The notes under the pieces are model-generated. The model saw nothing but the letters and a program-made list of their open reading frames with translations. It did not search any database and had not been told where the DNA came from. This document shows, piece after piece, positions 42,753 through 64,000 of a stretch of 64,000 nt of DNA; within the stretch, counting starts at the first letter, position 1, and every line of letters begins with the position of its first letter. The position numbers and the translations under genes are program-made. The DNA is taken from NCBI GenBank assembly GCA_963709645.1, contig CAVPXP010000021.1, positions 88,445 through 152,444 of the forward strand. The letters are read 5' to 3'. Source of the stretch: an uncultured Gammaproteobacteria bacterium. Lineage in GTDB: Bacteria; Pseudomonadota; Gammaproteobacteria; Chromatiales; Chromatiaceae.

Positions 42753-43905
42753 GCGCCAGCAGTCGATTACACTGGGGCCGCCGAAGCCGATCCTGCGCGC
42801 CGGTTGCATCGGGGCCAGATGACTGCCTGGGGACGGAGCCGATCGATGAGTCCAGAAGATAACCGGGTCGTGACCCCCGAGGCCGCCGATGACGGCGGAG
42901 CGACGGTCGTGCGCCTGGATCCGGTTGCACCCCATGGCATTGCCCCCGGGACCCTGTTGGTCAACACCTACCGGGTCGAGCGCCTGCTCGGCGGCGGCGG
43001 CATGGGGGAGGTCTATCTGGCCCGCCATACCGGGCTTGAGACCCGGCACGCCATCAAGGTGATCCGCCCCGCCATGGCCATGAACCGCCAGGTCATGGAC
43101 CTCTTTTATCGCGAAGCGCGGGTACTGCGCGGGGTGCGCCACGACGCCGTGGTGAGCTACGACGGCTTCGTGCGAGACGACCAAGGGCGCGACTACCTGG
43201 TCATGGAGTATGTGGAGGGCTCCTCCCTCGCCGACCGGCTGCGCCGCGGGCCGCTCAACCCCGCAGAGGTACTCAGCCTGCGGGACCGGCTCGCCGCCGG
43301 GCTTGCCGAGGCCCACCGCTGTGGGGCGGTGCATCGGGACATCTCCCCGGACAACGTCATACTGCCCGGAGAGCGCATCGAAGCCGCCAAGCTCATCGAC
43401 TTCGGGGTTTGCAAACTCACCGACCCGACCCAGGAGACCATCATCGGCTCCTCCTTCGCCGGCAAATACCGCTACGCGTCGCCCGAGCAGCTTGGCCTGT
43501 TCGGGGGTGGAGTGGACGCCCGCTCCGACATCTACAGTCTGGGTCTGATTCTCGCCGCCGCCGCCCAGGGGCGCCCCCTGGGCATGGGCGACAGCATCGA
43601 GGGCGCGCTGCGCAGCCGCCAGAGCGTACCCGACCTCAGCGGGGTCCCCGCGGGTCTGCGCGACTGGCTCGTGGCGATGCTGCAACCCGACCCTGCGCAA
43701 CGCCCGGCCACCATGGAGGCGCTGCTCGAGCACTGGCCGGCGGCTGGCGGCGGGACGCAGCGGTCGCCGGGTCGCACCGCCACGGAGGCCGCGGCGCGCT
43801 CTGGCCGCGGCCGACGCGGGTTGACGTGGGCGATCGGGCTGGTGTCGCTCGTAGCCGTTGCCGGCGGCCTTTACTGGCTGCTGCGCCCGCTGCCAGTGGT
43901 GGAGC
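42753..43905 (+). repeat. direct repeat copy 1 (kinase 5' module)
   Basis: 42753-43810 matches 49597-50654 (offset 6844). I aligned both junctions nucleotide by nucleotide. Track ORFs in several frames on both strands are identical between copies (43193..43465 = 50037..50309; 43210..43548 = 50054..50392). About 90% identity continues to about 43905. Confidence 0.9.
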
Positions 43906-44996
43906 GCAACCTGGATGCTGCCGCTACCCGGGGTACTGGGGAGACCGAGGCCGTCGCCGTTAAGGACGCCGATGTCGGGCAAGGCCAAACCCTGCGGGAG
44001 CAGCCGCAGCAGGTGGCGGCTAGGCGGGATGACACGGCGCCGGACACATCCAAGGTGGAAGAGCGATCCCAGGTCGATGTCCAACCCGATACGGCGTCGG
44101 ATGGCACCCCTGAGCCTGCACCCGAAGAAGGTCCGTTGCCGAGGGCGGAAAAGCCGCCTGAGCGCGAAACAGTCATCCCTGGCACACGCTTCGCCGATCC
44201 CTTGGCGGGCGGCGGCTCGGGTCCGATTATGGTCTGGCTACCTGGAGGAGAGTTCCAGATGGGCTCCCCTCCGGAAGAGCCGGGTCGCAACCCAGACGAG
44301 CGACTCCATCTGGCACCGATTCCGGAGCCAATCGCGATGAGCGAGACCGAGATCACCCTGGGGCAGTTTCGGCAGTTCGTCCAGGCGACGGGTTACCGAA
44401 CCGAGGTCGACCGCGAATCCACCTGTCTGAGACCGGACGATGCCTGGCAGCAGCTTGTTCCCGACATGAGCCTTTCGTGGCAGTCCCCGGGTTACGAGGT
44501 CACCGACCGGCATCCCGTCGCGTGCGTCAACTGGAGTGATGCGCGGGCATACGCCAAGTGGCTCACGGATACGACGGGCAAAGACTATCGCTTGCCGACG
44601 GAGCAGGAGTGGGAGTACGCGGCCCGCGCGGGGACCCTCACAAGCCGCTTCTGGGGGGACGATCCCAAGGCAGGCTGCAATCTTGCAAACACGGCGGAGT
44701 GCAAAGACGACTATACCTATGCCGCTCCGGCCGGGACTTTCCCGCCCAACCTCTTCGGGCTGCGCGACATGCTGGGTAATCTCGCCGAATGGACTTGCTC
44801 TGAGTATGGGAAAGGCTACAGTGGCAGCGAGGCCCGGTGCAGCGAGGCCGGCGGAGCGTCACCGCGGGTCTTTCGTGGCGGCTCCTGGCTCGATGCCCCG
44901 GAGCTGGTACGGTCTGCCGCACGGGACGGCGCTCCAGCAAACCTCGGCCTCAACACCGTGGGTTTCCGTGTGGTCCGGACCCTGGGCCCTGAGTAG
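42819..44996 (+). CDS. Hanks-type Ser/Thr kinase with TM helix and periplasmic FGE-sulfatase (SUMF1/TagR-like) domain; PpkA-like by context
   Basis: GGGGMGEVYLARH, HAIKVIR, HRDISPDNVIL, IDFGVCK, YASPEQ. TM WAIGLVSLVAVAGGLYWLL. FGE motifs RLPTEQEWEYAARAG, GNLAEWT, FRGGSWL, GFRVVR. Alternative ATG at 42846. Confidence 0.88.
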   Translation: MTAWGRSRSMSPEDNRVVTPEAADDGGATVVRLDPVAPHGIAPGTLLVNTYRVERLLGGGGMGEVYLARHTGLETRHAIKVIRPAMAMNRQVMDLFYREARVLRGVRHDAVVSYDGFVRDDQGRDYLVMEYVEGSSLADRLRRGPLNPAEVLSLRDRLAAGLAEAHRCGAVHRDISPDNVILPGERIEAAKLIDFGVCKLTDPTQETIIGSSFAGKYRYASPEQLGLFGGGVDARSDIYSLGLILAAAAQGRPLGMGDSIEGALRSRQSVPDLSGVPAGLRDWLVAMLQPDPAQRPATMEALLEHWPAAGGGTQRSPGRTATEAAARSGRGRRGLTWAIGLVSLVAVAGGLYWLLRPLPVVERNLDAAATRGTGETEAVAVKDADVGQGQTLREQPQQVAARRDDTAPDTSKVEERSQVDVQPDTASDGTPEPAPEEGPLPRAEKPPERETVIPGTRFADPLAGGGSGPIMVWLPGGEFQMGSPPEEPGRNPDERLHLAPIPEPIAMSETEITLGQFRQFVQATGYRTEVDRESTCLRPDDAWQQLVPDMSLSWQSPGYEVTDRHPVACVNWSDARAYAKWLTDTTGKDYRLPTEQEWEYAARAGTLTSRFWGDDPKAGCNLANTAECKDDYTYAAPAGTFPPNLFGLRDMLGNLAEWTCSEYGKGYSGSEARCSEAGGASPRVFRGGSWLDAPELVRSAARDGAPANLGLNTVGFRVVRTLGPE

Positions 44997-45115
44997 AGCG
45001 GGTGACGCGGCAGACGAATGCGAGGCTGCAAGTCAACAACGAACGGGCGGTCGCACCGGTGCCGCCCAGGGCATCGCGGGCGACATTATTTGGTGAGGAA
45101 GGCGGGTAGACGATC

Positions 45116-46060
45116 ATGAATCAGATAACGGAATCGATTGGGTTTATCCGCGCCCTGAACGCGGCAGCCGCAACACTGGTGCTGGGTGCCTGCGCGTCTT
45201 CGGGTGGGGAGTCCGTTTACCAGCAGGCGGCCGGCGCGAGGGACGACCCGAAGACTATCGAACGCCTCGTCGGCCAGGCGGAGGACCTCACCGTCGTGGA
45301 CTGCCTGCTCCCAGGCAAGATGCGCCGAATGGGGAGCACCATCACCTGGGTGACCCGACCGCGCCCCGTCAAGCAGATCGCGACCGATTGCGAGATCCTG
45401 GGTGGTCAGTACATCCTGTTCGACCGCGCCAATCCAGACACGGCATTGAGTGTATGGACGTCCGCTGCCGAAGCGGGAGATCCTACCGCCCAGACTTATG
45501 TCGGCGAGATCTACGAGCGCGGACTTGGCCGACCGCGGGATTATGGGACAGCGGCCCTCTGGTACCGAAAGGCCGCGGATCAGGGATACCCGCGCGCGCA
45601 GCTGCGGTTGGGGACCCTCTACGAGAAAGGTCTCGGTGTCGAGCGAGACCCGGTCAAGGCTTTGGACCTTTACCGCAAAGCGGCCGGGTTGTCGGAAGAC
45701 AAGGTCGTCTATCTCTCCCAGGCCCTTGCAGCGGCCCGCGCCTCCCAGGCGGCGGAGGCCGGAAAAGCGGCATACCAAGCGAAGGCCCGGGCCCAGTTTC
45801 AGCAGATCCGGTCAGAACGCAGCTCCAGCGACCAAAGGGTCCGCAGTGCGGAGGCACAAGTCGAGCAAGCCAAGGAGGAGGTGGTACGCAGTGGACGCCG
45901 GACACGGACGCTCGAACAACCAACCCCGGCGATCACGGCGAGGGGCAGGCTCATCGATCAGTATGTCGCTGTGACCCAACAGGCCGAAAGTCAGCGACTC
46001 GTGAGCGAAAGCCAGCGGCGCATAGAGGAACTCGCCCAACCCATCGTCGCGCAGAGGTAG
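45116..46060 (+). CDS. Sel1-repeat lipoprotein with C-terminal coiled coil
   Basis: Lipobox LVLGAC. Sel1 units AQTYVGEIYERGLGRPRDYGTAALWYRKAADQGYPRAQLRLGTLYEKGLGVERDPVKALDLYRKAA. Confidence 0.8.
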   Translation: MNQITESIGFIRALNAAAATLVLGACASSGGESVYQQAAGARDDPKTIERLVGQAEDLTVVDCLLPGKMRRMGSTITWVTRPRPVKQIATDCEILGGQYILFDRANPDTALSVWTSAAEAGDPTAQTYVGEIYERGLGRPRDYGTAALWYRKAADQGYPRAQLRLGTLYEKGLGVERDPVKALDLYRKAAGLSEDKVVYLSQALAAARASQAAEAGKAAYQAKARAQFQQIRSERSSSDQRVRSAEAQVEQAKEEVVRSGRRTRTLEQPTPAITARGRLIDQYVAVTQQAESQRLVSESQRRIEELAQPIVAQR

Positions 46061-46479
46061 TGCCTGTCGCAGCGGGTTCGGTCCCGCACCCGTATCCGCT
46101 GGGTCGGCAGGTTCTCGCCTGTCCCCCATTTCCGTGTCCAGCACCCCGAACGCGGGCTGGGCAACGATTCACGCCTCGACGCTCTGGCCCCGTCGGACTC
46201 AGTCGCGGACCAATCATTCTGGCTTGTATCTTTCTCGTCACATCTGGTCACTTTGCGGTAGGTCGTGCGTGACAAGTCGTTGTCAGTGACCTACCTTTAT
46301 CCGGGCATGTGTGGTCGACCGTACGTGTTGCGAATTGCATACAATGGGTGTCCGGTATGCAAACAGTAGAATTCTCGGGACAGATTACGGAAGGCCAAGA
46401 GGCGCGTTTGCCGTCTGGCGCCACGAGGTGGCCGCACGTTTCCGCGCAATGGGTCTTAGAGCAGGCAAGGGGGTAGAAG

Positions 46480-48603
46480 ATGGGAACGGGGCTGATTTGT
46501 TGCACTAGGTGGGGCGGTGATCACCCTGTTGATGGAAGTGATGGGGGCACGCGTTCATTGCGACGCGTCTTTCAGGCGCGCTGGTTACTGTTTCTTCCGA
46601 TCGCTCTCGTCGGCCTGCTTTTTTCCCCCCGAGCCTTTGCGGCTGTCACCACGGCGACGATCGCCGCATCACCAAGCCAGATTAACGAGGGCGGTTCAAG
46701 CGAATTCTCCGTTGCGCTGACGACCGACAGCATCACCGGGGCCCCCCATGATGCCACTGTCGTGGTGGGAGTAGCCGGCTCTGCGACTTTGGGCGTGGAC
46801 TACGAAATTGTGGGATATCCGCAAACCCCAATAACGCTGCAGTTCACCGGCTTCTTAAATGCGACTCAGAGCATCACGGTTAGGGCATTGAACGACACTG
46901 CCTTCCCTGAAAGCCCGGAAAGCATCATTCTCACAGTGACCCAATGCGCCTGGACAAACGCATCGGAAGGGTCGGGATCTTGCCCCACAGGATCTTCGGC
47001 GACAGTGACGATCATCGACGCGACGCCCGCGCCGGTCGCCACCATCGAGGCAACCTCTGGCAACGGTCAAGTGGCGTCGACGGGCGTGCCCTTGCAGCCG
47101 TTCGTCGTGACGGTCACGTCGGACGGTTCCCCCGCGGCGGGCGTCCCGATCGTGTGGACCCTGGTAAGCGGTGGGGGGTCCTTGTCCAATGGTCGGACGC
47201 TGACCGACGCCCAAGGACAGGCCAGTTCGACCCTGACGCCGAGCAGCAACGGCGAGTTCGTCGTCAGGGCGCAGGTCGAGGGTACGACTCAATCGGTCAC
47301 ATTCACCGCCTTGTTCAACCCGCTCGCCGGCCTGCCCGGGCTTACGGGTCCCCAGCGTTCGATGGCGACGACCCTGGATACCCTCTGCCCTAAGCTCGCC
47401 GGGACTGCCGATCAAAGGGCCCTGACGGCCGGCGAGCAGGATCTGCTCACTCAATGTCAGACGCTGATCAGCAGCTCCGTGACCGATCCCAGCGCCGCTG
47501 CGCAAGGCGTGGCGGCCTTGACACCCGAACAGGCAAGTGCTCCGCGCAAGCTTGCCACCCAGGTCGCCGGTTCCCAGATCGACAACATCGTGACACGCCT
47601 GATGGCACTCCGCCGCGGAGCGCGGGGCATCAGTCTGCGCAATCTGACCGCTAACATGGACGGCCAGAGCGTCGACGGTAATACGGCTGAAGGCGTGTCA
47701 AAGCAACTGGGCGGAACGGGCGGTGGGGCGAGCGCCGATGACACCTATGAGTTTGAGCGTTTGGGCATCTTCATCAACGGCAACATTGATTGGGGCAGCA
47801 AGGACAGGAGTGCCAACGAAGACGGATTCGATTTTAGTACCCAGGGGATCACCGCGGGCGTCGACTACCGGTTTTTGGAGGGTCTGGTGTTGGGGCTTGC
47901 GTTCGGATATGGCAACACGGATGCCGACATCGACTCCAATGGCGGCGATATCGGCGCCAACGCCTGGAGCAGCACCATTTACGGAACCTACTACGCGACG
48001 GATCACTTCTACGTGGAGGGATCTGGGATGTATGGCTGGAATAATTTCGATCAGACCCGCAACATCAGCTACAGCCTCCTTGGCGGGGCGCGCGAGGCCA
48101 ATGCAGACTTTGGCGGCAGTCAATATGCCCTCATGTTTGGGACGGGATACGACTTTATACGCGGCCCGGGAATCCTCGACATCTACGGACGTTTGAGGTA
48201 CGTGAAGGTGGATCTCGATAGCTACCGTGAACAGGGCGCGTCCGGTTTGGACCTCACCATCGACGGCCAGGAGGCAACCTCCTTGATGAGCATCCTCGGC
48301 GTCAACTACACGGGTTCCATCAGCCTTGCCAAGGTCGTGCTGGTTCCTCAGGGCTGGTTCGAGTGGCTGCATGAGTACGACGATGGCGACGATGAGGTGA
48401 CCGGAGTCTTCGTTAACGATCCGAACCGTATCCCCTTTGCACTGGCGACCGACAGCTTTGACACCGACTCCTTCCGCGTCGGCTTGGGGGTCGGGGCCCA
48501 GTTCGGGCAGGGTAGAACGGCCTTTGTGACCTACGAGGCGCGCGTGGGGCTCAATAATTACACCGAGCAAACGGCGAATTTCGGCGTGCGTCTGGACTTT
48601 TAG
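46480..48603 (+). CDS. autotransporter outer-membrane protein with Calx-beta-like and Ig-like passenger domains
   Basis: Signal LLFLPIALVGLLFSPRAFA. Calx-beta-like GSATLGVDYEIVG...ITVRALNDTAFPESPESIILTV. Invasin-like Ig VTVTSDGSPAAGVPIVWTLVSGGG. C-terminal beta-barrel with alternating aromatic pattern ending NFGVRLDF. Confidence 0.8.
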   Translation: MGTGLICCTRWGGDHPVDGSDGGTRSLRRVFQARWLLFLPIALVGLLFSPRAFAAVTTATIAASPSQINEGGSSEFSVALTTDSITGAPHDATVVVGVAGSATLGVDYEIVGYPQTPITLQFTGFLNATQSITVRALNDTAFPESPESIILTVTQCAWTNASEGSGSCPTGSSATVTIIDATPAPVATIEATSGNGQVASTGVPLQPFVVTVTSDGSPAAGVPIVWTLVSGGGSLSNGRTLTDAQGQASSTLTPSSNGEFVVRAQVEGTTQSVTFTALFNPLAGLPGLTGPQRSMATTLDTLCPKLAGTADQRALTAGEQDLLTQCQTLISSSVTDPSAAAQGVAALTPEQASAPRKLATQVAGSQIDNIVTRLMALRRGARGISLRNLTANMDGQSVDGNTAEGVSKQLGGTGGGASADDTYEFERLGIFINGNIDWGSKDRSANEDGFDFSTQGITAGVDYRFLEGLVLGLAFGYGNTDADIDSNGGDIGANAWSSTIYGTYYATDHFYVEGSGMYGWNNFDQTRNISYSLLGGAREANADFGGSQYALMFGTGYDFIRGPGILDIYGRLRYVKVDLDSYREQGASGLDLTIDGQEATSLMSILGVNYTGSISLAKVVLVPQGWFEWLHEYDDGDDEVTGVFVNDPNRIPFALATDSFDTDSFRVGLGVGAQFGQGRTAFVTYEARVGLNNYTEQTANFGVRLDF

Positions 48604-49499
48604 GGGCGAGTCTCTGCAGTTGCCGGATGGGCCTGAAGCGCTTGCAGGTCCAACGCGAATTGGTGATGCGTGAGCCCAGCGAGGATGGCCGGCCAGGCGT
48701 GCTCCCAGCAGCACCGATGGTCGAAACCGGGTACGACAACGAATTGCGCGTTCGGCTGGCCGGCTGCGGTTGGCCCTGACAAGCCGGTAGGGACCTGGAG
48801 GTCCCGTTTGCCCGCAAGGTGGATCTGTCGGATGTGGGCCGGCAGTGGTGGCTGTGTTGCCGGGTTGAGGGAGCCTCGGAGGCGGCTGTAGCCGTGGTGA
48901 TCCGCCCAAGCCGTGACGTCCAGATTGGCGGCAATCGTTATCACGCCTCGTACTTGCTCCATCCGCGCGGCAATGAGCATGGCCAGCACCCCACCTCCGC
49001 TGTAACCGATGAGTGTGACCTCGCGGTCGCTGCCGTGGCCCAAGGCACGCTGCAGAGCCGCGGTCATGCTCCTTACGACTTCCTCGCTATAGCGTCCCTG
49101 TGTCCACAGCCAAGGCGAGCAGCCGGGAGATTCTGCCAGCCCCTGGTAGCAGGGGCGCCCGATGTAGAGGGCCGGACCGGGATCGTGCGACATGAGTTGT
49201 AGCGCGAGAGGAGTCCGGGGGGTCGGATCCCGGGCAATACGTGTGCGGGTAATCCAAGGGAGGCCGTCCCCTTCGAGGTAGACATGCACAGGGCTCGACT
49301 TGTCCCAACTCCCCTGGCGGTAGACTAGATGTTGGAAGGGGTCCCCCGCGATCATCGATTGGTCGCGGCCGACCGCTTCCTTATGGACCCCGGTCCTTTG
49401 TAATGGCCAACTGCAGCCGAGGATGCTGAAGATCAACGAACCGGCCATGAACAGGGCCCAGCGCTTCAATAGACGCCACTCCAAGATAGTGAATACCAA
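48600..49499 (-). CDS. alpha/beta hydrolase lipoprotein
   Basis: Signal plus lipobox LFMAGSLIFSILGC. Nucleophile elbow LIGYSGGG. TTG start at 49499 (alternative ATG 49448). Its 3' end overlaps the autotransporter stop by 4 nt, convergent. Confidence 0.7.
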   Translation of the reverse strand: MVFTILEWRLLKRWALFMAGSLIFSILGCSWPLQRTGVHKEAVGRDQSMIAGDPFQHLVYRQGSWDKSSPVHVYLEGDGLPWITRTRIARDPTPRTPLALQLMSHDPGPALYIGRPCYQGLAESPGCSPWLWTQGRYSEEVVRSMTAALQRALGHGSDREVTLIGYSGGGVLAMLIAARMEQVRGVITIAANLDVTAWADHHGYSRLRGSLNPATQPPLPAHIRQIHLAGKRDLQVPTGLSGPTAAGQPNAQFVVVPGFDHRCCWEHAWPAILAGLTHHQFALDLQALQAHPATAETRP

Positions 49500-49596: not shown

Positions 49597-50749
49597 GCGC
49601 CAGCAGTCGATTACACTGGGGCCGCCGAAGCCGATCCTGCGCGCCGGTTGCATCGGGGCCAGATGACTGCCTGGGGACGGAGCCGATCGATGAGTCCAGA
49701 AGATAACCGGGTCGTGACCCCCGAGGCCGCCGATGACGGCGGAGCGACGGTCGTGCGCCTGGATCCGGTTGCACCCCATGGCATTGCCCCCGGGACCCTG
49801 TTGGTCAACACCTACCGGGTCGAGCGCCTGCTCGGCGGCGGCGGCATGGGGGAGGTCTATCTGGCCCGCCATACCGGGCTTGAGACCCGGCACGCCATCA
49901 AGGTGATCCGCCCCGCCATGGCCATGAACCGCCAGGTCATGGACCTCTTTTATCGCGAAGCGCGGGTACTGCGCGGGGTGCGCCACGACGCCGTGGTGAG
50001 CTACGACGGCTTCGTGCGAGACGACCAAGGGCGCGACTACCTGGTCATGGAGTATGTGGAGGGCTCCTCCCTCGCCGACCGGCTGCGCCGCGGGCCGCTC
50101 AACCCCGCAGAGGTACTCAGCCTGCGGGACCGGCTCGCCGCCGGGCTTGCCGAGGCCCACCGCTGTGGGGCGGTGCATCGGGACATCTCCCCGGACAACG
50201 TCATACTGCCCGGAGAGCGCATCGAAGCCGCCAAGCTCATCGACTTCGGGGTTTGCAAACTCACCGACCCGACCCAGGAGACCATCATCGGCTCCTCCTT
50301 CGCCGGCAAATACCGCTACGCGTCGCCCGAGCAGCTTGGCCTGTTCGGGGGTGGAGTGGACGCCCGCTCCGACATCTACAGTCTGGGTCTGATTCTCGCC
50401 GCCGCCGCCCAGGGGCGCCCCCTGGGCATGGGCGACAGCATCGAGGGCGCGCTGCGCAGCCGCCAGAGCGTACCCGACCTCAGCGGGGTCCCCGCGGGTC
50501 TGCGCGACTGGCTCGTGGCGATGCTGCAACCCGACCCTGCGCAACGCCCGGCCACCATGGAGGCGCTGCTCGAGCACTGGCCGGCGGCTGGCGGCGGGAC
50601 GCAGCGGTCGCCGGGTCGCACCGCCACGGAGGCCGCGGCGCGCTCTGGCCGCGGTAGGCGCGGGTTGATGTGGGCGATCGGGCTGGTGTTGCTCGTCGCC
50701 ATTGCCGGCGGTCTTTACTGGCTGCTGCGACCGCTGCCAGTAGTGGAGC
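49597..50749 (+). repeat. direct repeat copy 2 (kinase 5' module)
   Basis: See copy 1. The first mismatch is at 50655 versus 43811, just before the TM helix codons. Confidence 0.9.
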
Positions 50750-51181
50750 CCCAACCGGAGCCAGTACCCAACCGCAACCGCAACCGCAACCCCAACCGCA
50801 ACCCCTGCCATGGGGGAACTCCGTGACCTAATCCGCGAGGGCCGACTGGATGACGCCTTCGCGCTGGCCCAGGACCGCTTGAGCGCCGGGAGGCCACCCC
50901 CGGCAGAGGATCTCTGGGCACTGGGCCAAGGGTTGCTCAAGGCGCGGCGACTCGATCAAGCCTTCGCCCTGATCCGGGAGCTGGCGAACGCCGGACACGG
51001 CCCCGCTGCCTTCGCCTTGGCAGAGATGTACGATCCGTTGCATTGGTCCAAGGACAACTCGCCCTTCTCCAAGCCCAATGGGGCCAAGGCGCGAGACTGG
51101 TACCGTCGTGCTGCCGAGGCTGGGGTGCCAGACGCCGATGCGCGACTCAAGGCCGTCGATAGTGCCGAGGAGGCGCCATGA
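49663..51181 (+). pseudogene. Hanks-type Ser/Thr kinase paralog with TM, Pro-Gln linker and Sel1-like periplasmic domain; one frameshift near 50767
   Basis: The kinase domain is residue-identical to 42819..44996 up to GRGRRGL. TM WAIGLVLLVAIAGGLYWLL. The (CAACCG)n tract reads PNRNRNRN in the track frame and PQPQPQPQPQPLPWGELRDL in the frame of ORF 50810..51181 (AAFALAEMYDP...ARDWYRRAAEAG). Confidence 0.8.
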
Positions 51182-53930: not shown

Positions 53931-53937
53931 CGATCCC

Positions 53938-55156: not shown

Positions 55157-56816
55157 TGTATCTTTTGCGCGGTTGCTGGCTGCCCTGTTCGGGACCCTTG
55201 TCCTGGCGCTGGGCTCCGGCCTGGCCTCTGCCGATCAGGCCGCGGGGCCCGTGACCTGGCCGGAGAAGTTCTTCAACCCGACGCCGGCGGCCGATGATCT
55301 GGTGCTGCCCCTGGCGTGCGGCGGCGCCATGGTCTTTCGCCCCGTGGAGATCCCCTCCGACAACCTGTTGGACGACCGTCAGGTGGAACTCGGCCAGAGC
55401 GATGCCGATCGCGGTTACAAGGAGGGTCGGCGTTTGAGCCACCTGGCCGGCGCATTCTCGGAGCCGTCATCGGCGGCGCGCCGATACTACATCGCCAAAT
55501 ACGAGACGACCCGCGATCAATACGCCGCCCTGACCGCTGAGACCTGCCCCACACCCTCGATGCAGGGACGTTTGCCCATGACGGAGGTTAGTTGGTTCGA
55601 TGCGGTGGACCTGGCGCGCCGCTACACGGAGTGGCTGCTCGCCCACGCGCCCGACGCCATGCCCCGGGAAGATCGCGAGCCGGGTTTCCTGCGCCTGCCC
55701 ACGGAAGAGGAGTGGGAGTTCGCCGCCCGCGGGGGGCTGATGGTCGACGAGACGGACTTTCTGGCCCCCGTCTTTCCCATGCCCGAGGGCGACCTCGCAC
55801 GCTATGCCTGGTTCGAGAGCACCCGTTCCGCGGAGGGCAGCCTCCACCCCGTCGGGCTGCTGAAGCCCAATCCCCTGGGCCTTCACGACATCCTCGGCAA
55901 CGCCGCCGAGATGACCCTGGTTCCCTTCCACCTGGATCGACGGGGCCGCCCCCACGGTCAGGCCGGTGGATTCGTCAGCCGCGGCGGCGACGTCTTCACC
56001 CCCGAGAGCCAGCTGGGCAGTGCCGTGCGCCAGGAGCACAACTATTTCAACGGCGCAACCGGGCGCGCCAAGACGCTGGACAGCCTGGGCTTCCGTTTGG
56101 TGCTGACGGCCCCGGTGATCGTCTCCCCCCAGCGCCTGGACGCGATCAAGCAGGCCTGGTCGGTGTTGCCCGCCCTGACCGGGGATGCGGGGGGCGATGC
56201 GGCTCAGGCCCTCGCGGACCTCCGACAGTTGGCCGAGCAGTCCCAGGACCAGGCACTGCGCGCCCGTCTGGAACTGATTCAGCGAGACATGGAGCGGAGC
56301 CAGTCTGCGATCAACGAGGCCCGCGCCCGTACCATGCGCGCCCTCCTGCGCCTCGGTGCCTTTCTCGGGAAGCGGGTGGTCACGGACCGACAGAAGGCGC
56401 GGGCTATCGAGCAGCTTATCGGGCTTGCAGAGGGCCGCTTCGATCGCTTCGCTGCGGAAGTCTCCGGCCGGCAAGGCTCTGACGCGGCGATCGATGAGGC
56501 CCGCGCGTCCCTCAAGGACAAGATGGCGAAGTGGCAGACACAGCTCGATGAGATCCGTGAGAGTCTGGACAATAGCCTGTCCTATTACGGCGATACGGTG
56601 ATTGGCGTGGGTCGGGATTTCGGAGAGCAGGAGGTGGGAGCGGGGATCGAGGTCGTGAACGATGAGTTTCACCTGAAGCAGAACGCCTACTTGATCCCAT
56701 ACGCGGCGCAGTTCGTGGCACACATGGCGGCCTACCGTCTCAATGGACAAGCGGACAAGGGTTCCTGGCTTGGCGACCTTGATCGGATCGGTGCCGAACG
56801 AGGGCCAGTACCCTGA
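55149..56816 (+). CDS. periplasmic FGE-sulfatase (SUMF1) domain protein with C-terminal coiled coil (TagR-like by context)
   Basis: Signal LLAALFGTLVLALGSGLASA. FGE motifs YYIAKYETT, RLPTEEEWEFAARGG, GNAAEMT, GFRLVL. About 200-aa helical tail. 8-nt overlap with the permease gene. Confidence 0.8.
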   Translation: MSSVSFARLLAALFGTLVLALGSGLASADQAAGPVTWPEKFFNPTPAADDLVLPLACGGAMVFRPVEIPSDNLLDDRQVELGQSDADRGYKEGRRLSHLAGAFSEPSSAARRYYIAKYETTRDQYAALTAETCPTPSMQGRLPMTEVSWFDAVDLARRYTEWLLAHAPDAMPREDREPGFLRLPTEEEWEFAARGGLMVDETDFLAPVFPMPEGDLARYAWFESTRSAEGSLHPVGLLKPNPLGLHDILGNAAEMTLVPFHLDRRGRPHGQAGGFVSRGGDVFTPESQLGSAVRQEHNYFNGATGRAKTLDSLGFRLVLTAPVIVSPQRLDAIKQAWSVLPALTGDAGGDAAQALADLRQLAEQSQDQALRARLELIQRDMERSQSAINEARARTMRALLRLGAFLGKRVVTDRQKARAIEQLIGLAEGRFDRFAAEVSGRQGSDAAIDEARASLKDKMAKWQTQLDEIRESLDNSLSYYGDTVIGVGRDFGEQEVGAGIEVVNDEFHLKQNAYLIPYAAQFVAHMAAYRLNGQADKGSWLGDLDRIGAERGPVP

Positions 56817-57156: not shown

Positions 57157-57945
57157 TTAGTCGATCTCTCGTACGTGCATCTGCACATTACCGATGTCAA
57201 TGACGTCTCCGACCGTGAGGGGATGGCTGGGCAACACCTGCTTTTGGTTGACAAAGGTTCCATTCGCGCTGCCAAGATCCGTCAGTGTCAGCGCGATCTT
57301 CCCGCCAGACCGGCCGACCGAAATCTTGGCGTGCTGGCGAGATATGCAATCGTCATTGATCTGCAGGTCGACATTCTCGGAACGTCCGATAATCGCCCCA
57401 TGCCGGATTTGCAGCCGTTGCTCGAAACCCGACCCGACCCGCGGCTGTACGAAAAACAAAACGCTGGCCTGTCGGTACGCGGGGATAATCGTGGTTGGCT
57501 GAGGGTCCACAATGGAGCCGTGCTGGACCGCAGACAGCGTCAGCGACTCGGGCGGCACACCCAGGATAAGCGCCAGCAATCGTTGGCCCGCACGGTCAGC
57601 ATCCCTGCGGAAATCGATAAATTGAACGGTCCCGAGTTTTAGGTGGACTTCGCCGGGTTCGCAGGTCCTGGTCATCAGCGGGATAACACGTCCACGCATA
57701 TGCTCCAGGGCCCAATGAGTCTCTGCCTGAACCCATTCCGACCTTTGGGCGTCAGGTGACAGGACGACGATAAACCAGTCGGCTTGCACCAGCGCCTCAC
57801 GGATTTGCCTTTGCCAGTCGTTAGCCGTTCTGATGTGGGTTGCGGAGCACCAGGTGATTACGCCCTGCCCGCCAAACAATGGCTGGAGCTGGTTGCGAAC
57901 AAAATCAACGTCCTTGCTCGAATGACTGATGAAGAGCCGGGTCAT
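57157..57945 (-). CDS. TIR domain - FHA domain fusion protein
   Basis: From ATG 57945. TIR_2-like MTRLFISHSSKDVDFV...DWFIVVLSPDAQRSEWVQAETHWAL. FHA AIIGRSENVDLQINDDCISRQHAKI...LGSANGTFVNQKQV. The sampled line 57361-57420 is about 58% G+C against about 75% for 51241-51300. Confidence 0.8.
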   Translation of the reverse strand: MTRLFISHSSKDVDFVRNQLQPLFGGQGVITWCSATHIRTANDWQRQIREALVQADWFIVVLSPDAQRSEWVQAETHWALEHMRGRVIPLMTRTCEPGEVHLKLGTVQFIDFRRDADRAGQRLLALILGVPPESLTLSAVQHGSIVDPQPTTIIPAYRQASVLFFVQPRVGSGFEQRLQIRHGAIIGRSENVDLQINDDCISRQHAKISVGRSGGKIALTLTDLGSANGTFVNQKQVLPSHPLTVGDVIDIGNVQMHVREID

Positions 57946-58429: not shown

Positions 58430-58580
58430 GGGAAACGCTGATTAAAGCGTTTCCCGTGCGGGCCACGGAGGGCCAGCCATTTCCAACGGCGCTAAGCCGT
58501 TGAAAATGGAGCGCTCCACGAGTCGCGCCTCGGGGAGCGCGAGCTGATTCAAGCCAGGGATGGCTTTAATCAGCATCTCC
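58430..58580 (-). repeat. 151-bp MITE-like structured element, copy A (inverted relative to copy B)
   Basis: The reverse complement aligns with 61823-61970 at about 94% identity (8-9 differences by hand alignment). Terminal inverted repeat GCTGATTAAAGC / GCTTTAATCAGC. Internal 14-bp-stem hairpin CCATTT(T/C)CAACGGC. Confidence 0.85.
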
Positions 58581-58731
58581 CTAGCGGTCGGACGGGGGCG
58601 GCGCAGCTGGGCGGCGGCCTCTCGGTGACGTGCTGAAGTCTAACTGGTTTCCCCAGCATTTTTACCATAATCAGGTGTAGCTGACTGCATAGGGGGAGTG
58701 ATGTTCGATCTGTCCGTGACGACAACCAAGC

Positions 58732-59478
58732 TTGTCTGGCGTCGCCCCCGCATTTGCGGCTGCCGTGATTCTGATGGGAGGGTGCGTCAGCACCGGGGAT
58801 CGGGTTGGCGAGTCCGTCTCCGGTGCCGGGTCCTGGATGAGCGGGCTCACCGGCGGGGCGTCCACGACGGCTGCACCGGACAGTTCGCTCACCCCTGCCG
58901 AACAACGCCTGCGAAAACAGAGCCAGGCGTTCCAGAAAACGGTGTGGGAAGGGGTCCTGATCGGCGCCAGCGCTGGTGCGCTGTTGGGCATCTTCCAGGG
59001 TAAGGATACAGAGGGGATCCTCAAAAGGGCCCTGATCGGCGGGGCAGTGGGCGGCCTGGCCGGGGCCTACGTTGCCAGCAAACAGAAGCAATACTCGGAC
59101 AAGGAGGACCAGCTCGATTCGATGATTGCTGACGTGCAGCAGTCGAACAAAGAGACCGAGGAGCTGATTGGCAGCGCGCGGCAGGTCCTGGCCGAAGACA
59201 AGCGTCGCCTCGCCTCCGTGCGGAGCCGCTACAAGGCAGGGCAGGCCTCGGAGGCGGATCTGACGAGTACCCGCAGTCGTGTTTCGGAGAACGAGGCCGT
59301 GGTTAGCCAGGCCACCAAGGGCGCGCGGGAGAAATACTCCATGTTCGAGGGCGCCGAGCGGGAGTACCGACAGCAGAACCCCGGCACAGATACAGCTGGC
59401 CTGCAGAAGGAGCTCCGGGCCTATAACCAGCAAATCGAGACCCTGGATGGCCTCGCGAACACGGTCTCGGCAGCCTAG
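58732..59478 (+). CDS. lipoprotein with glycine-zipper segment and coiled-coil C-terminus
   Basis: Lipobox VILMGGC. Glycine zipper GVLIGASAGALLGIF...LIGGAVGGLAGAYVA. The TTG start at 58732 is uncertain. Confidence 0.6.
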   Translation: MSGVAPAFAAAVILMGGCVSTGDRVGESVSGAGSWMSGLTGGASTTAAPDSSLTPAEQRLRKQSQAFQKTVWEGVLIGASAGALLGIFQGKDTEGILKRALIGGAVGGLAGAYVASKQKQYSDKEDQLDSMIADVQQSNKETEELIGSARQVLAEDKRRLASVRSRYKAGQASEADLTSTRSRVSENEAVVSQATKGAREKYSMFEGAEREYRQQNPGTDTAGLQKELRAYNQQIETLDGLANTVSAA

Positions 59479-59488
59479 GGAGCTGGCA

Positions 59489-60067
59489 ATGAAGCGATCC
59501 GATGGTGGCAAGGGCACGGACTCCAGGTTGTACGCTGCGGCCTCGGCCATGGGGCGCTGGCGCGGCTGGGTCCTATCTGCCGGCATCTCCATCTTTGCGG
59601 CCGGGTGCGCGACCAGTGTCGATCCCCACGAGGGCGGCTTCGTGAGCGGGGTCGTGGGCCTGGCTGGCGGCGGTTACCAGCGTCGCGTCGACGAGCGGGA
59701 GGGCGTCCACCAGGGCGAGCTGAGTGCTCAGCAGCGGCTCAATGCGCAGGCGAGCGCGCTCGAGCAGGAACGGGCTCAGGTGAGAGGAGACCTGGGGCGT
59801 GCACAGTCCCGCCTGGCGAACCAGGAGCGCAGAATCGCCGCAGAGCGCTCGCGTCTGAGGGCCGAGAGCAAGAGCTCTGCTACCCAGGCGAGCCTGCACC
59901 GACTCGATCAGGCACAGGCACGCGTAACGAGTACTAAAGATCAGCTGCGGGGGGTTCGGCCGGACGAGCAGCCAGTGACGGACCTCAGGACCAGATCCCA
60001 GGGAATCCAGAAGGAGCTGGACGAGATCGACAGCATGGTGAGCGTGGTGTCCGGGAGCCGGTTCTAG
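59489..60067 (+). CDS. coiled-coil lipoprotein
   Basis: ATG 59489, lipobox SIFAAGC, then heptad-rich QQRLNAQASALEQERAQVRGDLGRAQSRLANQERRIAAERSRL. Confidence 0.6.
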   Translation: MKRSDGGKGTDSRLYAAASAMGRWRGWVLSAGISIFAAGCATSVDPHEGGFVSGVVGLAGGGYQRRVDEREGVHQGELSAQQRLNAQASALEQERAQVRGDLGRAQSRLANQERRIAAERSRLRAESKSSATQASLHRLDQAQARVTSTKDQLRGVRPDEQPVTDLRTRSQGIQKELDEIDSMVSVVSGSRF

Positions 60068-60494: not shown

Positions 60495-61638
60495 ATGCGG
60501 CAGGGCAGGAGATCTCACGACCACGCAGGCGCCGGGCAACCCAAAGTGTCATTCGATTCTACGAAACCCATTGCCGTCTCCCTGGCGCTGATTGTCGTGC
60601 GTCGCTGGGCTCTATGCCGATCCGGCCCTCTGCGGACTCCGGCGCGACGCCGAAGAAGACCGGCGACCTCGGGTTCTGGGAGGAGCTCGCCTTCTGGGAG
60701 ACCGTCAAGAACAGCAAGGACCCGTCAGAGTTCGAGGCCTATCTGGCCACCTACCCCACCGGGCGCTTTGCGCGCCTTGCCGAGATACGGATCAAGGCGC
60801 TGAAGAGGCAAACCGCACCGGCATCGGGGAGGAGTCCACAGGTCCCCATCCGATGGCGGCGGACCTGCTGGCGGCATGTCGGCGGGTCGGCCGGGACAAC
60901 GGATCGCTGCGGGCGACGGGGCGACCGAGCACCTTTCGGGATTGCGACGCATGCCCGTTGATGGTGGAGGTACCGGCAGGCACCTACCTGATGGGCTCCG
61001 ACCAAGGCCGCCCGGACGAGAAGCCTAGACACGAGGTCCGCTTCGCCCGCCCATTCGCGATCGGCGTCTACGAGATAACACTCGCCGAATGGGACGCCTG
61101 TCTGCGCGAGGGCGGCTGCCGCTTCAGCCCCGAGGCGGGCGCTGACGGTCGCCTGCCTGCCAGCAATCTGAGCTGGGACGACGCACAAGAGTATGTCGCC
61201 TGGCTCAGCAAGAAGACGGGTCATGCGTACCGATTGCCGACCGAGGCCGAGTGGGAGTACGCAGCCAGCGGGGGCAAGACGACGGCCTATTGGTGGGGCG
61301 ACGAGGTCGGCAAGGGTAACGCGAATTGCAGTGACTGCGGGAGCGACTGGGATGGCCGCGGCCCGGCTCCGGTCGGATCTTTCGCGCCCAATCCGTTCGG
61401 GCTCTACGACGTCCACGGCAACCTGTGGGAATGGACGATGGACTGCGTGAATGGCTCCTACAAAGGAGCACCCGTCGACGGCTCGGCCTGGCTTCGGGGC
61501 GATTGCATCGCGCGCATCCTGCGCGGCGGCAGCTGGAATCTGGGGGCTGACTACATGCGAACGACCCGGCGGAATCATTACGACCGGGACGTTCGCTACT
61601 ACCTGCACGGTTTCCGGGTCGTCCGGTCCATGCCCTGA
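60495..61638 (+). pseudogene. membrane-anchored FGE-sulfatase (SUMF1) domain protein, about 2 frameshifts; start uncertain
   Basis: The putative anchor KPIAVSLALIVV (frame 60447), DLGFWEELAFWETVKNSKDPSEFEAYLATYPTGRFARLAEIRIKAL (frame 60614) and the FGE domain in frame 60592 (RLPTEAEWEYAASGG, GNLWEWT, LRGGSW, GFRVVRS) read as one gene. Confidence 0.7.
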
Positions 61639-61822
61639 TCCCGCGACCTGATCGGGGCATGGCGGGCGGCTGCGATGCCCTGTATCGCCAGCCCGCCAGT
61701 TGCCTGCGGACATCTCCGTCCAGACCGCTACGCATGACCCTCGCCGCCGTCGCCGCGGCCGCTATCGCGGACCCTCCAGGACCTGCGAGAGTTTCATGCA
61801 GACCTCGATTCCGAACCCCTAA

Positions 61823-61970
61823 GGAGATGCTGATGAAAGCCATCCTGGCTTGAATCAGCTCGCGCTCCCCGAGGCGCGACTCGTGGAGCGCTCCATTTTC
61901 ACCGGCTGAGCGCCGTTGAAAATGGCGGGCCCTCCGTGCCCCCACGGGAAACGCTTTAATCAGCGTTTTC
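61823..61970 (+). repeat. 148-bp MITE-like structured element, copy B
   Basis: GGAGATGCTGATGAAAGCC...GGGAAACGCTTTAATCAGCGTTTTC. See copy A. Confidence 0.85.
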
Positions 61971-62005
61971 AACGTAATGCTCGCCCTGGACGGCGCCGGC
62001 CATTC

Positions 62006-62676
62006 TCAGGGCACGGTGATGGTGATCCGCTCTGACATCACCGGCGGCGTGTGCGGGATGTGATTGGCATCGCCCAGCAGCAATTGCAGGGTGTGCTCGC
62101 CCTTGGGTAGTGTCAGGTGATACTCGGTCTGGCCACGGCCGAAAGTGGACAAAGTTGTCACTCGCAGGGATCGGCTGATCCAGTGGCGGTAGGTCCGTAT
62201 CGATCAGCAGGTGATGATGGCCCGGTATGGGCCTTATCCACGCCGGCAGGCGCCGTACCCATCCCGTGCAGTCCGAACAGGACGACGAAATCGCCCCCAG
62301 GGATTACCTCGCCATCCTGCGGCCAAATGATGTACGCAAAGGCATCCTCTGGAGCCTCGGTCGGTCCGCCTTTCAAGCTGGGTGTACTCGGTTCCAAGGA
62401 ACCGCTCCCTCGGTCGACTCGAGCAGGTGACCATAGACGAAGCCCATCTGCCCGCTGTTCAAGCGAACCTGGTGCCAGTTGCCTCCAGCGGCGCTTCCGA
62501 TCACCCGGACGCTGGTTGCCCTGTTTGAGGTAACCGATCTTCTGGGAATTGGTGGTCGGCGCGGCCCTGATGTTCGAGTTGGCCGTCGCCTGGTACATCT
62601 TGCCCGAATCCTCTGCGCTCAGCGGGAAGGCAAAAAGAACCGAGGTGATCGCCGCGGTGATGAGGCTTCGTTTCAT
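62006..62676 (-). pseudogene. SH3b + DUF4399 domain periplasmic protein, about 3 frameshifts
   Basis: Signal MKRSLITAAITSVLFAFPLSA. SH3b-like IRAAPTTNSQKIGYLKQG / VRVIGSAAGGNWHQVRLNSGQMGFVYGHLL. DUF4399 pattern FGLHGMGTAPAGVDKAHTG / HHHLLIDTDLPPLDQPIPASDNFVHFGRGQTEYHLTLPKGEHTLQLLLGDANHIPH. Frame changes near 62515, 62400 and 62215. Confidence 0.65.
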
Positions 62677-62928
62677 GGGGTTGGCTCCTTTGGTCATTGC
62701 TATCGTTATTGCTGCGTCTTGAGCAAACGCAGATTAAACCGGCACTCACCGCGAGGCGGCGTTGCCGGCCGAGTCGGCAGGCCCCTCAGGTGCAGTTCCG
62801 GGTGCGCGGGGACCGAACCCAAGAATGGGCCGAATGCCGGGACATGACCGGAAACGCTCCAGCCGCACCCCGATACCCGGCAGAGTATGGGCGGGCCCGC
62901 ACGCCACAACAACCTTGGGGATCTCGCG

Positions 62929-64000
62929 TCATTGCATGTAGTCGAGCGCCTGTCGGAGCCCCAGCAGACGCTCATCGTCCGGATTCATTCTCAAACCAGT
63001 CTCAATCATTCGGCGAGCGTCGTCGATCGCCCCCTGCCTCAACATTGCGTCGGCGGACAGGAACACCTTGTTGGCTGCGTTTATTCGCCCAATCGTAACC
63101 AGGGCCTGCGTGGCTTGCGGGTGCTCCGGGTCGAGGTCCAGGACCCGGCTGTAGCTCTCGAAGGCGTTGTCTCCCGGCGGATCGGTCAAACGGCCGGCCT
63201 TCCATTGACGTCTCGGCCTGGTTCAGCAATGTTTCGAACCCGTTGCTGTCCGCCGGCTATAGGCCGTCGGGAGTATCCGCAAGCAGGGGTCCCCCGCCGG
63301 GGGTGCGCCTGGTCTCAACGTGAGCCGTCGGCGCCCCCGGTGGCAGACCCTCGGGTGTCGGCAGCAGGGGTCTGGCGCCCTCATCCGACGCGTGCGGCAG
63401 GGCACCAGGCACGGCGTCTTGGGCGTCGCTCGGCGGTACTGAGGGCGTCGCCGGTGCTTCTGGGATCGGTGTGAGAAGGCCGCTATAGCCGATGAAGGCC
63501 GCGATCCCCATAAGGCCCGCGATGCCGATCAAGGCGACCGCCAGCCCAAGGCGGCGTCTCGCGCGCCGATTCCGGAGGGGCTCCACTTGGGCCGGGGCAA
63601 CCCGGCGATTCGGCGTCGTTTCTGGGACTCGCGACAGGACGACGGTCGTCGTCGGAGTCGGACGGGGAGCACGCACCGATGTCGTCGTGCGGGATGCGCG
63701 TCGATGACCCGGAGCAGTTCCTCGGCTGACGCCATCCGATCCTCTGGCTTCTTGGCCATCAGCCCCTCGATGACGGGCTGGAACCGATCCAGGCGTTCGG
63801 GCAGTTCCGGGATCGGATCGTTCGCGTGCTTCAGCGCCAGCGCAAAGGGGTCCGGCGCCGAATAGGGCAGGGTACCGGTCAGCATCTGCCAGAAGAGGAC
63901 GCCGAGGCTGTACAGATCGGACCGGTTGTCCACCTCGTCTCCCAGGGCCTGCTCCGGACTCATGTAGCCGACGCTCCCGACCGTCACTCCGGTGGAGGTG
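62929..64000 (-). pseudogene. third Hanks-type Ser/Thr kinase (C-lobe, TM, TPR-like tail); 5' end beyond window, at least 2 frameshifts
   Basis: VGSVGYMSPEQALGDEVDNRSDLYSLGVLFWQMLTG...RMASAEELL. TM LGLAVALIGIAGLMGIAAFIGY in frame 63257..63676. Tail GDNAFESYSRVLDLDPEHPQA... in frame 62929..63189. Confidence 0.75.

Follow-up and report, generated by a model that had tools for sequence, protein, structure and literature searches.

A TIR-FHA fusion gene nested in the sensor operon of a type VI secretion-type threonine phosphorylation pathway: a candidate second phosphothreonine reader in Chromatiaceae

Can a pathway that senses envelope perturbation through threonine phosphorylation serve an output other than the assembly of a type VI secretion system (T6SS)? 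This question is raised by a stretch of 64,000 nt (hereafter the window) from an uncultured gammaproteobacterium of the Chromatiaceae (assembly GCA_963709645.1, contig CAVPXP010000021.1, positions 88,445–152,444), in which a gene encoding a fused TIR and FHA domain lies within genes resembling the sensor operon of the T6SS threonine phosphorylation pathway (TPP). A first-pass annotation had proposed that several kinases and envelope sensors at this locus feed two FHA readers, the T6SS protein TagH and the TIR-FHA protein, and every part that it named was found again in the Pfam and NCBIfam profile searches. Genes were chosen according to third-position GC content (GC3) before these searches; most of the long open reading frames (ORFs) were spurious because the window is GC-rich (approximately 0.62–0.72 in 2-kb steps). 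The fusion of an FHA domain to a predicted enzyme domain inside a sensor operon suggested a second output of the kinase pathway. The reading pursued here, a TPP sensor operon in which the nested TIR-FHA protein would act as a second phosphothreonine (pThr) reader and so provide that output, was given an about even chance of being correct.

The TIR-FHA gene (57157–57945, minus strand) encodes 262 residues and is antisense to the tag operon. The TIR assignment survived the profile searches (TIR_2, 9.4e-22), as did that of the FHA domain (2.1e-18). The AlphaFold2 model contained two confident domains connected by a disordered linker (residues 136–156), with a mean predicted local distance difference test (pLDDT) score of 84 and a value of approximately 90 for the TIR alpha/beta domain. 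The FHA domain was nearest to GarA, OdhI and FhaA by both sequence and fold (Foldseek TM-score of approximately 0.8), and in sequence searches against the PDB the TIR domain was aligned to AbTIR, PdTIR and the CRISPR-associated Cat1. FHA matches prevailed when the whole model was submitted to Foldseek, and no TIR match occurred among the best 50. Hence, the support for the TIR domain comes from the sequence searches. The residues expected for catalysis and binding were almost completely conserved. E75, which was positioned opposite the glutamate of the AbTIR motif DWTNYEL, was present in all 98 homologues, and the surrounding SxWVxxExHWA motif was invariant in the same set. Within the pThr pocket of the FHA domain, R188, S202, R203 and N228 were found in 98 of the 98 homologues and H205 in 97. 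Approximately 100 clusters of full-length homologues (90% identity) were collected, all of approximately 260 residues and all with this pair of domains; those with a named source came from Thiodictyon, Lamprocystis and Allochromatium. Among 1.84 billion representatives (50% identity clusters), approximately 20 proteins of 245–280 residues matched the full profile in one stretch. The architecture is thus rare and forms a small family, mostly of Chromatiaceae; its cultured carriers include Thiocystis violascens DSM 198, Lamprocystis purpurea DSM 4197 and Allochromatium warmingii DSM 173.

The linker contained an island of conservation. In the motif T151-T152-[IVL]-[IVL] (residues 151–154), which reads Thr-Thr-Ile-Ile in the window protein, at least one threonine was retained in 91 of the 98 homologues, within a segment that was otherwise variable and of low pLDDT. 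The actinobacterial FHA proteins GarA and OdhI carry an N-terminal phospho-switch in the form of an ETTS motif, which the island in TIR-FHA may be taken to recall; a further parallel may be the ETII segment that the neighbouring kinase has in its activation loop. The likeness to GarA and OdhI comprises the conserved Thr-Thr-hydrophobic motif, its place in a disordered segment just N-terminal of the FHA domain, and the fact that theirs are the closest solved FHA domains. By contrast, GarA and OdhI lack an enzymatic domain and act by binding and regulating enzymes of the tricarboxylic acid cycle, whereas TIR-FHA carries a fused TIR domain and its self-binding is a prediction. A second precedent is DgcB of Bdellovibrio, an FHA-GGDEF protein activated by its phosphorylated tail (PDB 6hc0 and 6hc1 were among the structural matches), in which an FHA domain is likewise fused to a nucleotide-signalling enzyme, as predicted for TIR-FHA; the output of DgcB is a diguanylate cyclase instead of a TIR domain, and it has no link to a T6SS sensor operon. 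The fold of the TIR domain and its SxW..E catalytic motif are common to TIR-FHA, AbTIR, Thoeris ThsB and Cat1. Unlike the bacterial TIR NADases and synthases, TIR-FHA is accompanied by no ThsA, SAVED, STING, NLR or CRISPR partner; its regulator would be the FHA domain, and its genomic partners belong to a Ser/Thr kinase pathway. The NCBIfam and PADLOC searches of TIR-FHA returned sub-threshold, domain-level TIR matches (ThsB, SAVED-TIR), and the neighbouring genes were those of the Tag and T6SS sets. The locus was accordingly assigned to no known defence system; the partner genes expected of Thoeris, CBASS/Pycsar TIR effectors, TIR-NLR or retron-TIR (ThsA, a cyclase, SAVED/STING, a STAND NTPase, a reverse transcriptase) did not adjoin TIR-FHA.

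The operon around TIR-FHA was read on the plus strand from a PpkA-type kinase onwards. This kinase has one transmembrane (TM) helix, contains the HRD, DFG and SPE motifs (Pkinase, 1e-37/1e-38) and is divergent from fha. It is followed by a secreted vWA-like protein of 674 residues with a signal peptide (51178–53202), a TagT-like ABC ATPase of the LolD/FtsE/DevA type (53130–53930; ABC_tran, 1.4e-25), a TagS-like FtsX permease with TM helices (54017–55156; FtsX, 1.4e-6) and a TagR-like protein with a signal peptide and an FGE-sulfatase domain (55149–56816; 1.1e-25). Beyond the antisense TIR-FHA gene, a TagQ-like Gly-zipper lipoprotein with a lipobox (58732–59478) and a coiled-coil lipoprotein, also with a lipobox, which is its constant partner (59489–60067), are encoded on the plus strand. 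The TagQ-like protein scored 45 bits on NF041250 VI_TagQ (E=7e-12) against a cut-off of 300 bits; it is probably a distant relative of TagQ and no equivalog. The weakest call in the operon was that of the 674-residue protein, which may correspond, as the product of a gene of its own, to the vWA domain in the periplasmic part of Pseudomonas aeruginosa PpkA. Its vWA matches (E 5e-4 to 3e-3) were all below the Pfam cut-offs, and a profile of seven orthologues gave no vWA match against PDB sequences. A motif resembling the metal ion-dependent adhesion site, DxTxS...TD (DTTxS, TD), was invariant in the 7 orthologues, and the gene was always located 3' of the kinase in the loci compared.

The comparison with other genomes was based on a set of loci, designated by L numbers, that were drawn from species-representative genomes, metagenomes and look-ups of exact proteins; their neighbouring genes were mapped by tblastn with the window proteins and T6SS proteins. 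The block of kinase, secreted protein of approximately 680 residues, ABC ATPase, FtsX permease and FGE protein recurred in other genomes, with 41–89% identity of the FGE protein. In the alphaproteobacterium Inquilinus (L133), the order was tssM-tagF-PP2C-kinase-684aa-ABC-FtsX-FGE, and in a member of the Competibacteraceae (L135) it was fha-kinase-664aa-ABC-FtsX-FGE-255aa-173aa, in which the last two proteins were homologous to the TagQ-like and coiled-coil lipoproteins of the window. The block belongs with the T6SS because it stands directly after tssM-tagF-PP2C in the former and directly after fha in the latter. The coiled-coil lipoprotein orthologues came after the TagQ-like gene in L001, L132, L134 and L135. 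Among the loci that lack TIR-FHA, the TagQ-like gene followed the FGE gene on the same strand (L134, L135, L136), with the coiled-coil lipoprotein gene next in L134 and L135. Therefore, the ancestral operon consisted of the kinase, vWA-like, tagT, tagS, tagR, tagQ-like and coiled-coil lipoprotein genes. Together with the Fha/TagH and PppA genes beside it, the region of the window is, to judge from its genes, a TPP sensor module of the T6SS type. In L001 (4213–7540) and L002 (3743–7177), the TagQ-like pair is adjoined by an operon that encodes a caspase-like peptidase bearing a peptidoglycan-binding domain, a Tll0287-like/HAMP protein and a DUF8082 kinase; this operon may represent a further envelope-linked kinase input.

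The analogy to the TagQRST-PpkA-Fha1-PppA pathway of P. aeruginosa, which had been drawn in the first-pass annotation, was strengthened by the distant TagQ relative and by the position of the block after tssM-tagF-pppA or fha. The H1-T6SS pathway of P. aeruginosa has been summarized in a review (PMC13584744). The features shared with it are a single-helix membrane kinase of the Hanks type, an ABC ATPase with an FtsX-type permease, a periplasmic FGE-sulfatase protein, a lipoprotein of the outer-membrane type, a phosphatase of the PP2C family and a scaffold protein with an FHA domain (TIGR03354), all next to tssJKLM and tagF; a periplasmic vWA element would be a further one if the candidate in the window is genuine. 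The differences are that the vWA part forms the C-terminus of PpkA in P. aeruginosa but would be a secreted protein of its own in the window; that a Sel1-like periplasmic tail, or an FGE domain in the case of kinase 1, is found on the window kinase; that the TagQ-like protein is far under the TagQ equivalog cut-off and the coiled-coil lipoprotein is extra; and that the window operon embeds a second FHA protein, which bears a TIR domain.

This embedding was not peculiar to the window. Besides the window, at least 14 loci of Chromatiaceae have a TIR-FHA gene in antisense orientation, flanked by tagR and the tagQ-like gene (L001, L008, L009, L010, L013, L015, L064, L065, L068, L070, L078, L079, L058, which is a partial contig, and L132, which is Thiocystis violascens DSM 198), with 51–85% identity to the window protein. 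Hence, the synteny of TIR-FHA with kinase and TagR-like genes, on which the first-pass reading depended, was seen in many related genomes. L015 and L064 repeated the full order of the window, including Fha beyond the kinase, such that two FHA readers bracket the sensor operon. Several of the nested loci had a gene for a 419-residue protein before TIR-FHA and a second TagQ-like paralogue after tagR. Homologues of TIR-FHA and of the TagR-like protein were found on contigs of the same size down to TIR-FHA identities of 38–43%. In L132, a giant nSTAND1-WD40 protein is encoded directly upstream (1–4081) of the kinase operon that bears TIR-FHA.

The gene was also found beside T6SS genes in other arrangements. 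In L003, TIR-FHA followed tssM-tagF-pppA. The order in L018/L084 was pppA-autotransporter-vgrG-TIR-FHA-446aa, with vgrG directly upstream, and in L017/L057 a vgrG/PAAR/AHH island was followed after 3.5 kb by TIR-FHA-446aa and then by clpV-tssG-tssF-tssE-hcp. TIR-FHA and clpV were convergent in L082 and L083, and L085 showed the order TIR-FHA-Sel1-autotransporter-kinase/FGE. After clustering of the TIR-FHA proteins at 95% identity, 22 loci had at least 10 kb of total flank, and in 15 of them TPP or T6SS genes lay within 10 kb of TIR-FHA. If these genes are assumed to occupy 1–2% of a genome of 5–8 Mb, the count is far above chance even if it reflects only approximately five independent architectures. 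The GC3 of TIR-FHA equalled that of its neighbours in most of the loci, which indicates a long residence. Two further genes were seen next to TIR-FHA. One, encoding the 419-residue protein with a signal peptide, was directly upstream in L002/L011, L005, L006, L009 and L015; its product is distantly related to that of the last gene in the Competibacteraceae operon, a protein of 420 residues. The other, encoding a 446-residue protein, was directly downstream in L017/L057, L018/L084, L077 and L080. The two proteins are unrelated to each other, are both absent from the window and gave no sequence match in Pfam, NCBIfam, PADLOC or PDB.

Several observations weigh against a functional tie between TIR-FHA and the operon. 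TIR-FHA was an orphan in nine of the 22 loci that had 10 kb of flank or more, none of the neighbour genes used as queries being close by. Copies in housekeeping contexts without a kinase or PP2C gene within 10 kb made up about a third of the TIR-FHA genes (L053, L055, L014, L012, L062, L069, L022 and L089). The copy in L053 was placed between GGDEF and smpB/NADH dehydrogenase genes, and that in L055 (Allochromatium warmingii) between rdgC and a transposase gene. Conversely, relatives of the operon occurred without TIR-FHA in L134 (TagR 78% identical), L136, L135 and L133; TIR-FHA is therefore dispensable for the TPP. No threonine motif in the juxtamembrane region of the kinase separated the loci with TIR-FHA from those without it. 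The module of Thiocystis violascens (L132) had no T6SS gene within 10 kb, and over the same distance from its operon L001 had only vgrG-associated ones. Much of the synteny may reflect one inherited arrangement and hence few independent events. In the window itself, the GC3 of TIR-FHA was 0.69, against 0.81 for tagR and the neighbouring genes, and an element of approximately 160 bp resembling a miniature inverted-repeat transposable element (MITE) was located upstream of TIR-FHA (58433–58592), with a second, inverted copy of 93% identity at 61810–61968. From the lower GC3 and this element, TIR-FHA in the window may be a recent replacement or acquisition. The element has its own terminal inverted repeats, ATTAAAGC...GCTTTAAT, and its two copies flank the TagQ-like, coiled-coil and third FGE genes; further copies were found neither in the window nor in loci L001–L057.

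The kinases that would supply the pThr mark required closer attention, as the first-pass annotation had counted three Hanks kinases. All three were present. Kinase 1 is a Hanks kinase-TM-FGE chimera (42819–44996, plus strand; Pkinase, 1.4e-37; FGE-sulfatase, 4.5e-55) with one TM helix. Kinase 2 is of the PpkA type with a TM helix and is frameshifted (49663–51181, first ORF 49663–50826, plus strand; Pkinase, 1.5e-38). Kinase 3, a kinase-TM-TPR protein (62929–64000, minus strand; Pkinase, 1.9e-9; TPR_19, 3e-8), runs past the end of the window and is likewise frameshifted: its C-lobe lies at 63532–63999 (minus strand), its TM segment is in another frame than the kinase and TPR parts, and it is 44% identical to the kinase kin525 of L134. 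Kinases 1 and 2 are not independent. The 5' region and the coding sequence for the kinase and TM parts form a direct repeat (copy A, 42753–43915; copy B, 49597–50759; both plus strand) of 98.9% identity over 1164 nt, and the two proteins are 99% identical over 367 residues. The copies differ at a few sites, which are concentrated in the TM helix, where the repeat has its 3' edge, a pattern like that at the margin of a conversion tract. The picture of a multi-sensor locus with three kinases was thus overstated for the window, where a single catalytic module, present twice, accounts for two of the kinases and the reading frames of several sensor genes are interrupted.

The origin of kinase 1 could be followed by comparison with L134. 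Its N-terminal kinase and TM part was 72% identical to the PpkA-type kin497 and only 27% identical to the kinase domain of kinase-FGE786, whereas its C-terminal FGE tail was 75% identical to kinase-FGE786. Kinase 1 is a natural domain swap between paralogues, its kinase and TM part being of the PpkA type and its FGE tail that of a separate kinase-FGE protein. GC content was lower (0.62–0.65) in the 6.8 kb that separate the two repeats. Besides the FGE tail, this segment carries a Sel1-repeat lipoprotein gene (45116–46060, plus strand; Sel1, 4e-21), an autotransporter gene with a Big_1 passenger and a beta-barrel (46480–48603, plus strand; Autotransporter beta-domain, 7e-53) and a gene for an alpha/beta hydrolase-like lipoprotein (48600–49499, minus strand; weak Abhydrolase matches, with an orthologue of 55% identity in L015), the last two of which the first-pass annotation had overlooked. 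The Sel1 gene was 82% identical to the one located 3' of the kinase-FGE gene in L134, and a homologue of 50% identity adjoins TIR-FHA in L085. The 6.8-kb segment places a foreign sensor tail, together with the Sel1, autotransporter and hydrolase genes, under a copy of the 5' part of ppkA. In the nearest orthologous loci (L015, L064), fha was directly divergent from a kinase gene of 531–540 codons and the 6.8-kb insert was absent. Autotransporter homologues were also seen near TIR-FHA or T6SS genes in Thiohalocapsa-like loci (L017/L057, L018/L084, L019, L085, L086); that of L085 is accompanied by Sel1 and kinase-FGE genes, which is the same set as in the insert of the window. The frame of kinase 2 was lost inside a CAACCG (Pro-Gln) hexanucleotide tract (50760–50815), exactly at the end of the repeat, and its conserved Sel1-like periplasmic tail was located in another frame (50816–51181) by orthologue mapping and alignment. 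Slippage, phase variation or a sequencing error could be the cause of this loss.

The three FGE-sulfatase domains named in the first-pass annotation, one fused to kinase 1 and two separate, were recovered with E values of 4.5e-55, 1.1e-25 and 3.1e-55. The last belongs to a gene with one frameshift (60584–61638, plus strand), the product of which was 75% identical over two frames to FGE367 of L134. A diversity-generating retroelement acting on FGE domains, an idea taken from PMC10907252, was considered and rejected, as a repeat search of 40–64 kb gave no pair of template and variable repeats; no reverse transcriptase was detected among the ORFs scanned with Pfam, which cover part of the window. 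Next to the third FGE gene, a frame-broken SH3_3-DUF4399 gene (62009–62697, minus strand) was mapped to its L134 orthologue in three frames.

The T6SS genes of the window are all encoded on the minus strand. The canonical FHA reader, fha/tagH, occupies 40751–42406 (FHA, 7e-16; T6SS_FHA_C, 3e-59; TIGR03354, 316 bits against a cut-off of 120). It is followed by the tssJ lipoprotein gene (40223–40723; T6SS-SciN, 3e-36), tssK in three frames (38875–40211; T6SS_VasE, 1.3e-32 on one piece), the frame-broken tssL (DotU) (37454–38815; DotU, 4.7e-43; frame switches relative to L003), tssM in at least four frame segments (33749–37441; IcmF-related domains, frame switches located by tblastn with TssM of L003), tagF (33001–33738; TagF_N, 3.8e-47) and, directly after it, the PP2C phosphatase gene pppA (32234–33001; PP2C_2, 5e-13), which is orthologous to the PppA that comes after TagF in L003, L018 and L133. 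TagH and PppA were both confirmed by profile, and both lie outside 42819–64000, the range given in the first-pass annotation. No tssBC, hcp or clpV gene was found in the window. A scan of 56.5–58.9 kb for consensus promoters and terminators gave no match, and Rfam and tRNA scans of the whole window gave no match and no sign of an RNA element or a tRNA-bounded island. The 5' part of the window (1–32107) contains FG-GAP/ASPIC proteins spread over several overlapping ORFs, which are possibly frame-broken too, a TauE exporter, a sigma-54 activator, a Cache-HAMP-GGDEF-EAL protein, an IS110 transposase (21067–22320) and BatB/BatD-like vWA-TPR genes (28016–32107).

Frame breaks relative to orthologues were thus present in kinase 2, kinase 3, the third FGE gene, the SH3-DUF4399 gene and tssK/L/M. 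The fha, pppA, tagF, kinase 1, vWA-like, TagT-, TagS- and TagR-like, TIR-FHA, TagQ-like and coiled-coil lipoprotein genes were intact. Of the 7 frameshift sites inspected for homopolymer artefacts, only 2 had a run of at least 5. Related metagenome-assembled contigs carried frame breaks too, such as that of L021, in which TIR-FHA extends over three frames. The breaks may mark a secretion machine in decay next to a sensor and TIR module that is retained, or they may be indel errors of long reads. The breaks, those of the related contigs and the 98.9% identity of the duplication can also be read to mean that the multi-kinase complexity of the window is mostly decay or assembly noise, with pseudogenes or long-read indels around an ordinary TPP locus as the only functional part. 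This explanation was considered very unlikely: the genes of TIR-FHA, the TagR-, TagS-, TagT- and TagQ-like proteins, the vWA-like protein, the coiled-coil lipoprotein, Fha, TagF and PppA are all intact, and the synteny holds at the level of the family, independently of the window.

Three other explanations concern TIR-FHA itself. NADase toxins are known T6SS effectors, and TIR-FHA could be such a cargo, loaded via VgrG, with the neighbouring gene encoding an adaptor or an immunity protein. The loci with vgrG directly before TIR-FHA (L018/L084) or with the vgrG-PAAR-AHH island 3.5 kb upstream (L017/L057) would fit a cargo, as would the 446-residue protein encoded after TIR-FHA in these loci and in L077 and L080. 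However, in the window and at least 14 other loci no vgrG, PAAR, chaperone or immunity candidate adjoins TIR-FHA, which is placed inside the sensor operon there; an invariant pThr-binding pocket makes little sense in a delivered toxin; and the Pfam search of the window protein found no MIX, PAAR or Rhs-type delivery domain. A role as cargo is highly improbable on these grounds. TIR domains also act as protein-interaction modules. TIR-FHA may accordingly be a non-enzymatic regulator or scaffold of T6SS assembly, the FHA domain of which would either compete with Fha/TagH or complement it at the phosphorylated kinase or TssL, while the TIR domain only self-associates and firing is modulated. The links to pppA, clpV and vgrG in several architectures and the bracketing of the sensor operon by TIR-FHA opposite Fha in the window, L015 and L064 speak for this role, which was nevertheless judged unlikely, because the catalytic glutamate and the SxWVxxExHWA motif are invariant in all 98 homologues, as expected of an enzyme, and the module with TIR-FHA also occurs where no T6SS gene lies within 10 kb.

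The possibility that TIR-FHA is an independent anti-phage or abortive-infection gene, which has its own trigger and hitch-hikes in a variable spot, such that the proximity of the kinase has no functional meaning, was taken to be unlikely. It would account for the orphan copies in unrelated contexts, one of which adjoins a transposase gene, for the lower GC3 and the nearby MITE-like element in the window, for the resemblance of the TIR domain to those of ThsB and SAVED-TIR, and for an operon that presumably functions without TIR-FHA in L133–L136. A hitch-hiking gene would not be expected to keep the same nested antisense position while its proteins are only 51–60% identical, or to occur near T6SS genes in at least four further arrangements. 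Moreover, PADLOC detected no known defence partner or system, and an FHA domain needs a Ser/Thr kinase, of which those of the TPP are the nearest.

For the nested TIR-FHA protein as a second pThr reader of the TPP operon, the following mechanism can be proposed. An envelope perturbation sensed by the periplasmic Tag proteins would activate the PpkA-type kinase, which would then produce pThr on itself, on the Thr-Thr-Ile-Ile motif of the TIR-FHA linker, or on both. The FHA domain could read the mark in trans, docking on the active kinase and thereby clustering the TIR domains, or in cis, through an intramolecular switch resembling that of GarA and OdhI. Reading of the mark would switch on the TIR domain, which is predicted to be catalytically competent, leading to NAD+ cleavage or to an NAD-derived signal, and PppA would reset the system. 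Fha/TagH and TIR-FHA would thus be two readers of one kinase, the former directing T6SS assembly and the latter a metabolic, signalling or suicide response. Gene content, synteny and residue conservation were observed, whereas phosphorylation, FHA binding, TIR activity and the outcome in the cell are predictions. The more specific proposal is that TIR-FHA is a pThr-gated TIR enzyme, through which the TagQRST-PpkA sensor, known only for triggering T6SS firing, also controls NAD+ consumption or NAD-derived signalling, and that in some purple sulfur bacteria the module serves as a stand-alone alarm for envelope breach (for example phage entry or T6SS attack) with no adjacent secretion machine. 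This more specific proposal is a tentative one, possible without being probable.

The first-pass annotation was aware of no described system that combines these parts, and the literature searched contained no such pairing either. Full-text searches returned no paper with 'TIR-FHA' or 'FHA-TIR' and none that joined 'TIR domain' with 'threonine phosphorylation pathway', and a search on TIR, FHA, NADase and phosphothreonine gave nothing relevant and no report of pThr-controlled activation of a TIR domain. TIR is not mentioned in a 2026 review of T6SS accessory factors (PMC13584744). In comparative-genomics papers on bacterial conflict systems, FHA and FGE/FGS domains were mentioned only sporadically and the pairing of TIR-FHA with the TPP was not described; one of these papers, which concerns Thiohalocapsa, describes a diversification of FGE-type lectin domains, again with no mention of this pairing. 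Within the literature searched, the sensor pathway is a known one whose second output, if real, has not been described, nor has a regulator of this type for a TIR domain.

A single class of output, namely assembly dependent on Fha and TssL, is known for the threonine phosphorylation pathway of the T6SS. The known triggers of TIR domains are oligomerization by NLR, SAVED, STING or CRISPR partners and direct phage sensing. If the proposed role of TIR-FHA is true, danger sensed at the envelope would branch into metabolism, signalling or cell fate via a second, enzyme-bearing FHA reader, and the phosphorylation pathway of the T6SS would gain a new class of output. TIR-FHA is short and soluble, such that the hypothesis is open to in vitro testing. 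Furthermore, a Ser/Thr kinase and phosphatase pair would represent a new principle of reversible gating and a new mode of activation for TIR domains, and the biology of the T6SS and TIR immunity would meet in these bacteria.

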